In this document: positions 5,416 through 5,973 of the stretch, in pieces
Layout of the letters: every line of letters starts with the position of its first letter
How positions within the stretch are numbered: the stretch's first letter is position 1
Source: Escherichia coli
GTDB lineage: Bacteria > Pseudomonadota > Gammaproteobacteria > Enterobacterales > Enterobacteriaceae
Assembly: GCF_003334405.1 (NCBI RefSeq)
Contig: NZ_QOWM01000005.1
DNA: 64,000 nucleotides
Strand: one strand, 5' to 3'
Translations under genes and position numbers: made by a program
Notes under the pieces: generated by a model
Seen by the model: the letters and a program-made list of their open reading frames with translations, nothing else
Told to the model about the DNA's origin: nothing
The model's database searches: none

Positions 5416-5973
5416 ATGACCCTACGCAAGATTCTGGCACTCACCTGCCTGCTGTTGCCGATGATGGCTTCCGCACATCAGTTCGAAACCGGTCAGCGAG
5501 TGCCGCCGATTGGCATTACCGATCGAGGCGAGTTGGTGCTTGATAAAGATCAGTTTAGCTACAAAACCTGGAACAGCGCACAGTTAGTGGGAAAAGTGCG
5601 AGTACTGCAACATATTGCTGGTCGCACCTCTGCAAAAGAGAAAAACGCGACGCTGATTGAAGCGATTAAATCAGCGAAGTTACCGCACGATCGCTACCAG
5701 ACCACCACCATTGTTAACACCGACGACGCGATTCCGGGTTCAGGGATGTTTGTGCGCAGCAGTCTGGAGAGTAATAAAAAGCTTTATCCCTGGTCGCAGT
5801 TTATTGTCGATAGCAATGGCGTCGCGCGCGGTGCCTGGCAGCTGGATGAAGAAAGTTCCGCTGTAGTGGTGCTGGATAAGGATGGTCGCGTGCAATGGGC
5901 CAAAGACGGGGCGCTCACACAGGAAGAGGTGCAGCAAGTGATGGACCTGCTGCATAAATTAATTAATAAATAG
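5416..5973 (+). CDS. ytfJ: Periplasmic protein YtfJ
   Basis: 185-aa ORF with ATG at 5416 preceded by AAGGAA; signal-peptide-like N-terminus [20 protein letters not shown]. Confidence 0.9.

Follow-up and report, generated by a model that had tools for sequence, protein, structure and literature searches.

Convergent Escherichia coli genes are reportedly closed by overlapping bidirectional terminators at which termination is driven by collision, and Rho-dependent transcripts are said to be trimmed back to a protective 3′ stem-loop. Wang, Watters, Ju & Liu found that a stem-loop is needed for positioned collisions of converging polymerases at convergent E. coli genes (bioRxiv 10.1101/2022.10.23.513370). 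The locus described here, the convergent pair ytfJ and cysQ, figures in a study by Higashi et al. (2016, PLoS Genet; PMC4720273, S10 Fig) in which ytfI was reported as a K-12-specific insertion missing from strains SE11 and SE15. In K-12, H-NS binds ytfI and spreads over cpdB, cysQ, ytfJ, and ytfK; SE11 and SE15, both without ytfI, show no such H-NS binding (PMC4720273). Presence or absence of ytfI is therefore a known polymorphism, already published as that of a K-12-specific, H-NS-bound insert. Ours is the same locus with the same polymorphism, and ytfI is absent from our sequence as it is from SE11 and SE15. Whereas that work dealt with three strains and focused on the spreading of H-NS, we surveyed 5,426 genomes and at least 80 outgroup species and describe the junction at the level of single bases.

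We analyzed a 64,000-nucleotide stretch of DNA from an E. coli genome (RefSeq assembly GCF_003334405.1, contig NZ_QOWM01000005.1), referred to here as the window. The identities of the two genes are secure: YtfJ matched TIGR01626 over its full length with 306.8 bits (curated cut-off, 151), and CysQ matched NF008182 over its full length with 525.3 bits (curated cut-off, 379). Among the matches listed in a protein search with YtfJ, there were only close enterobacterial relatives. A preliminary description of this DNA had stated that the two stop codons overlap by 11 bp with no gene between them; the list of open reading frames (ORFs) and the sequence bear out both the coordinates and the figure. 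No ORF of at least 30 aa fits between ytfJ and cysQ in the window, and the same 11-nt overlap is present in the RefSeq annotation of a 100%-identical E. coli B derivative.

Features of the ytfJ-cysQ junction in the window and of inserts at the same point in other lineages (L, locus)
Feature	Position	Strand	Description	Basis
ytfJ CDS	5416-5973	+	185 aa; YtfJ family periplasmic protein; stop TAG 5971-5973	ORF list, sequence, TIGR01626
cysQ CDS	5963-6703	-	246 aa; 3′(2′),5′-bisphosphate nucleotidase; stop TAA 5965-5963 (+ strand, TTA)	ORF list, NF008182
Overlap of convergent 3′ ends	5963-5973	both	11 nt, TTAATAAATAG; site of the K-12-type 1,212-bp ytfI insert and, elsewhere, of other cargo	
Hairpin A	5930-5954	-	10-bp stem, 5-nt loop; in ytfJ codons 172-180; candidate cysQ 3′ stem-loop	
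Hairpin B	5979-5995	both	7-bp palindrome in cysQ codons L-N-P-G-F-R	Terminator scan
Insert, E. albertii	L011:4556-6059		1,504 bp, 33% G+C; 385-aa pentapeptide-repeat protein	
Insert, divergent "E. coli" SCPM-O-B-7615	L004:2499-4002		1,504 bp, 33% G+C; 385-aa pentapeptide-repeat protein	
Insert, Citrobacter youngae ATCC 29220	L047:4559-6678		2,120 bp; TIGR04222 membrane protein and radical SAM/SPASM enzyme	
Insert, two Kluyvera species	L064:4556-5459, L065:4556-5460		~905 bp; serine-type D-Ala-D-Ala carboxypeptidase homologue	
Spacer, K. intermedia	L072:4556-4626		71 bp; no cargo	

We scanned one genome per species and obtained 80 enterobacterial loci, in 74 of which the two stops overlap, by 11 nt in 40, by 7 nt in 28, and by 4 nt in 6. 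The genera concerned include Escherichia (E. whittamii among its species), Citrobacter, Salmonella (S. enterica subsp. arizonae), Klebsiella, Raoultella, Enterobacter, Kosakonia, Kluyvera, Trabulsiella, Lelliottia, Leclercia, Pluralibacter, and others; E. fergusonii and S. enterica likewise have the 11-nt form. Because the convergent overlap is kept in so many of the Enterobacteriaceae species loci, it is not a matter of chance.

The preliminary description had also placed an additional ORF, ytfI, between cysQ and ytfJ in K-12. Alignment and annotation agree with this: in the K-12 derivative NEB Turbo (locus L001), the order is ytfJ, ytfI, cysQ, and ytfI encodes 312 aa on the cysQ strand. Pairwise BLAST of the window against K-12 gave flanks of 99.1% and 98.2% identity around a segment found only in K-12, so that the K-12-type insertion allele is absent from the window. 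The segment measures 1,212 bp from the ytfJ stop to the cysQ stop and lies exactly at the point of overlap; K-12 thus does not share the overlapping arrangement, and its ytfI is at this junction and not elsewhere. G+C content is 34.7% in the insert versus 49.5% in the flanks. The YtfJ tail reads …LLHKLINK-stop in the window and …LLQKLLK-stop in K-12, the CysQ end (…RVSIY-stop) is unchanged, and there is a hairpin at both ends of the insert, supplied by the insert itself. We found no integrase or insertion sequence in the K-12 insert, and we rejected a target-site duplication, as the 11-nt ends match at 6 of 11 AT-rich positions, which is not significant. In strain ETEC1738 (L003:1753-2450), an IS1 element replaces most of ytfI together with the 3′ third of ytfJ; of the K-12-type insert, only the final 164 bp survive beside cysQ.

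The junction is a recurrent insertion point, with different cargo held at exactly the same place in other lineages (see the table). The pentapeptide-repeat protein of E. albertii and of the divergent strain SCPM-O-B-7615 weakly resembles type III effectors (PipB, PipB2) as well as SopA-like proteins, and the TIGR04222 protein of C. youngae ends in a Ser/Cys/Gly repeat (a Cys/Gly-rich tail). The K-12 insert (35% G+C; bound by H-NS according to PMC4720273) resembles the single-gene, AT-rich orphan insertions of horizontally acquired, H-NS-silenced DNA between convergent core genes, and E. albertii has a different AT-rich cargo at the same point. The window differs from these in having no cargo at all.

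Since there is no spacer in the window, a signal for the 3′ end of cysQ mRNA would have to lie inside the last codons of ytfJ. A candidate for such a signal, hairpin A, starts 8 nt past the cysQ stop on cysQ-sense RNA and encodes V-Q-Q-V-x-x-L-L-H in ytfJ. Hairpin A is G+C-rich, has on the minus strand the stem-loop that an intrinsic terminator requires, and gave z scores of -2.6 and -2.8 against shuffled sequences on that strand. No U-tract follows it on its 3′ side (tail, CCUCUUCCUGUG / CCUCUUCC), and the consensus terminator scan does not report it. Because it lacks a U-tract, we would not class hairpin A as a canonical intrinsic terminator, and it most probably does not terminate transcription on its own. 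No Rfam family matches at the junction.

Several observations suggest that this 10-bp stem-loop would be kept by selection on synonymous sites. We compared it with synonymous recodings that followed each locus's own codon usage (only ~430 codons per locus). Hairpin A beat the recodings in 75 of 75 loci, with a median z of about -2. Among the conserved Val, Gln, and Leu columns of ytfJ and cysQ, synonymous entropy is at or near its minimum in five codons of the stem (for example, GTG in 80 of 83 cases, CTG in 82 of 83, and CAG in all 82), and the Val codon of the loop and the neighboring Leu codons vary freely. In an alignment of 80 sequences, pairing is retained in 93.6% of the cells that make up the stem. 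Covariation was seen for 1 of 10 pairs, largely within one genus, and 5 pairs are invariant, in sequences that are phylogenetically related. The covarying pair (18-28) is G-C in 69 sequences, A-U in 6 (all Escherichia), and G·U in 5, and is thus always paired in the cysQ sense. Three separate lineages (E. coli, Kosakonia, and Kluyvera) have the G·U intermediate, in which CAA is combined with CTG; it wobbles only on cysQ-sense RNA and would be an A·C mismatch on ytfJ-sense RNA. The opposite intermediate was never seen in the loci aligned. The GTA variants of Salmonella and C. youngae produce a G·U pair as well, again on cysQ-sense RNA only.

Such conservation could also have arisen for a reason that has nothing to do with cysQ, be it a requirement of ytfJ at the level of mRNA or of translation close to the stop codon, a DNA signal, or simply a run of preferred Q-Q…L-L codons, in which case the overlap would be without regulatory meaning. 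CAG and CTG are reverse complements of each other and are also the preferred Gln and Leu codons, so a stem could follow from codon preference; however, the recoding null takes codon usage into account and was nevertheless beaten in every locus. The stability of hairpin A differs little between the two strands, and most of its pairs never vary, which fits a cysQ-independent cause; the one-sided changes that do occur preserve pairing, as G·U, in the cysQ sense only. Nor is the region alone in ytfJ: hairpin A lies in the least variable 9-codon window of the gene, and a second window, codons 47-55, is almost as constrained. Against this, variation in the Val, Gln, and Leu columns is lowest at the stem codons, while codons for the same amino acids in and next to the hairpin are free to change. 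Finally, K-12 still has hairpin A even though its cysQ and ytfJ are no longer adjacent, although we consider the recent insertion alleles that keep it (K-12 and E. albertii) uninformative. Overall, a cysQ-unrelated cause is a reasonable possibility that we nonetheless doubt.

The insertion alleles also bear on this choice, and they point toward cysQ. Whatever the insert, a strong stem-loop lies at a distance of 5-15 nt past the cysQ stop; this is so in both ytfI alleles, that of K-12 (z = -5.6) and the divergent one, as well as in E. albertii, C. youngae, and three Kluyvera species. The C. youngae replacement is a duplicated copy of hairpin A, its insert being flanked by a direct duplication of ~45 bp of the ytfJ 3′ end that includes the hairpin. 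In the Kluyvera species, K. intermedia included, the hairpin adjoining cysQ has the core GCAGCAG/CUGCUGC and resembles hairpin A in ytfJ; to judge from this resemblance, it may be a diverged duplicate. Internal pairs of the stem are broken in two sequences only (L064 and L065), both from the Kluyvera lineage in which cysQ has a separate hairpin of its own. From these sequence comparisons, hairpin A is probably the 3′ stem-loop of cysQ mRNA. The fuller proposition, that a cysQ stem-loop in the last ytfJ codons would be held by selection on synonymous sites and that inserts would survive only if they bring a replacement hairpin (at least five independent alleles), is one that we put forward tentatively, as falling just short of an even chance. 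If true, the spacer-less junction would be a hotspot of recurrent insertion and, at the same time, a terminator or stabilizer embedded in coding sequence.

How hairpin A might serve cysQ can be considered in the light of the described systems. It could be a barrier for the trimming of read-through transcripts after Rho-dependent termination within untranslated antisense ytfJ RNA. Like the Rho-trimmed 3′ stem-loops, hairpin A is stable, has no U-tract, and lies soon after the stop, followed by untranslated antisense RNA that would be open to Rho; both Rho dependence and trimming would be carried over from those systems. Alternatively, hairpin A could position collisions between converging RNA polymerases. 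The collision-driven bidirectional terminators (bioRxiv 10.1101/2022.10.23.513370) are alike in that a convergent pair has one palindromic stem-loop at the gene boundary. In contrast to them, hairpin A is inside a coding sequence, has no flanking A- or U-tracts, has wobbles that favor the cysQ transcript only, and is known here from its sequence.

The preliminary description took the overlapping ends to imply transcriptional interference or shared termination. It has thus also to be considered that the overlap itself might cause functionally important transcriptional interference, through collisions or antisense RNA, and so couple the expression of ytfJ and cysQ. With no spacer, each transcript must run into the other gene; in E. 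coli, collision reportedly brings about termination where polymerases converge at a stem-loop (bioRxiv 10.1101/2022.10.23.513370), and the spacer-less layout has been stable over many genera. However, several lineages tolerate 71 to 2,120 bp between the genes, and ytfI is present there in 30% of E. coli, so that tight coupling cannot be essential; we think functionally important interference of this kind unlikely. We infer that the hairpin would serve as the cysQ 3′-end signal. Hairpin A would be a natural test case for the definition of mRNA 3′ ends in spacer-less convergent genes, and it calls for caution when ytfJ is codon-optimised.

By the consensus scan, there is no canonical terminator for either gene at the junction, and the only match nearby is hairpin B, in cysQ. 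We rejected hairpin B as a selected structure, since it showed no gain over synonymous recodings of the last 14 free codons in 75 loci (median z, 0.06 on the plus strand and +0.55 on the minus strand). Its palindrome is explained by the codons AAY-CCN-GGN-TTY, which dictate it. The recoding test found no selected structure for the ytfJ transcript beyond codon constraints.

We determined the distribution of the two junction states among complete E. coli genomes. A 140-nt probe across the junction, required to be contiguous, found the junction uninterrupted in 3,795 of 5,426 genomes (~70%). The ytfI segment, for which the preliminary description had proposed a pangenome check, was present in 1,623 (~30%), and the two counts together account for nearly all 5,426. 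The empty site is found in E. coli B, ST131, S88, and the O127:H6 genome, among others; carriers of ytfI include K-12, O157:H7, and O55:H7. The earlier view that the window differs structurally from K-12 is right insofar as the 1,212-bp segment is confined to K-12 in that comparison, but it is not the window that is unusual, given that most E. coli genomes and the great majority of species loci have the same ytfI-less junction. In records labelled as plasmids, 3-4 places matched the ytfJ-cysQ region and 1 place matched ytfI; they may reflect misassembly, or pieces of the chromosome carried on F-prime-like plasmids.

Because the overlap spans 74 of the 80 species loci, as well as E. fergusonii and S. 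enterica, the spacer-less junction is the ancestral one. On this comparison of sequences, the window has the ancestral and majority state, and the ytfI insertion is derived. The opposite history, in which E. coli started from the K-12 layout and the window lineage deleted ytfI, leaving the overlap as a secondary scar, is highly improbable: ytfI alleles do differ by up to 31% in protein and do occur in a second Escherichia species-level lineage (L009), which means that the insert is not very recent, but the overlap with its …TAAATAG motif recurs in most of the species sampled, from many genera, a deletion would implausibly have had to rebuild the ancestral junction to the base, the empty site is the more common in E. 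coli, and tblastn at outgroup empty sites found no ytfI remnants. The outgroups effectively refute it.

In the account that we favor, a ytfJ-cysQ junction without a spacer, with the last 11 nt shared, is ancestral in Enterobacteriaceae and has been retained by the window lineage. Some Escherichia lineages, K-12 and O157:H7 included, later gained the 1.2-kb AT-rich ytfI segment exactly there. The insertion altered the YtfJ tail slightly and gave cysQ a new downstream hairpin, and the window lineage never had the insert. Taken as a whole, with an ancestral junction, a later ytfI insertion, and hairpin A as the probable cysQ 3′-end signal, we consider this account very likely to be correct. As to its evolutionary part, an ancestral junction and a derived insert, essentially nothing speaks against it.

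The one caveat is that E. coli is polymorphic for ytfI even inside one phylogroup, as K-12 and B differ within theirs, and the alleles would therefore have to move by recombination in the flanks. The polymorphism within the species would thus be best explained by occupied and empty alleles that move by recombination in the conserved flanking genes.

We searched for relatives of the YtfI protein. It had zero matches in Pfam and NCBIfam. A word-seeded search of 5.8 billion proteins returned only E. coli and Shigella alleles, with 69-98% identity, and an exhaustive HMMER search of 1.84 billion representatives returned fragments of YtfI itself and one marginal match (E = 8.4e-4). The AlphaFold model is poor (mean pLDDT, 52.5). 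By these searches, ytfI is an orphan gene without detectable relatives, confined to Escherichia and Shigella. PADLOC gave a partial match to Cas6b of 17 bits over 40 residues, which we dismissed as noise. The most divergent protein, 69% identical to K-12 YtfI, is encoded at L009:4661-5587 in an Escherichia GTDB species representative labelled E. coli SCPM-O-B-8794. There, ytfI is at the K-12 site between flanks that are 96-98% identical, and the cargo is either very fast-evolving or an old insertion.

The difference between the window and K-12 is thus the presence or absence of an orphan gene, a polymorphism that is common and has been published before. The window shows the ordinary state, and K-12 should not be taken as the ancestral reference. 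Since the insert brings H-NS onto cpdB, cysQ, ytfJ, and ytfK in K-12 (PMC4720273), strains without ytfI should lack this silencing.

Between cysQ and cpdB, the Rfam sRNA ES239 matched on the minus strand (6770-6892) with 154.5 bits versus a gathering score of 62. The match is on the cysQ strand, upstream of the start of that gene, and it may be the cysQ 5′ leader.
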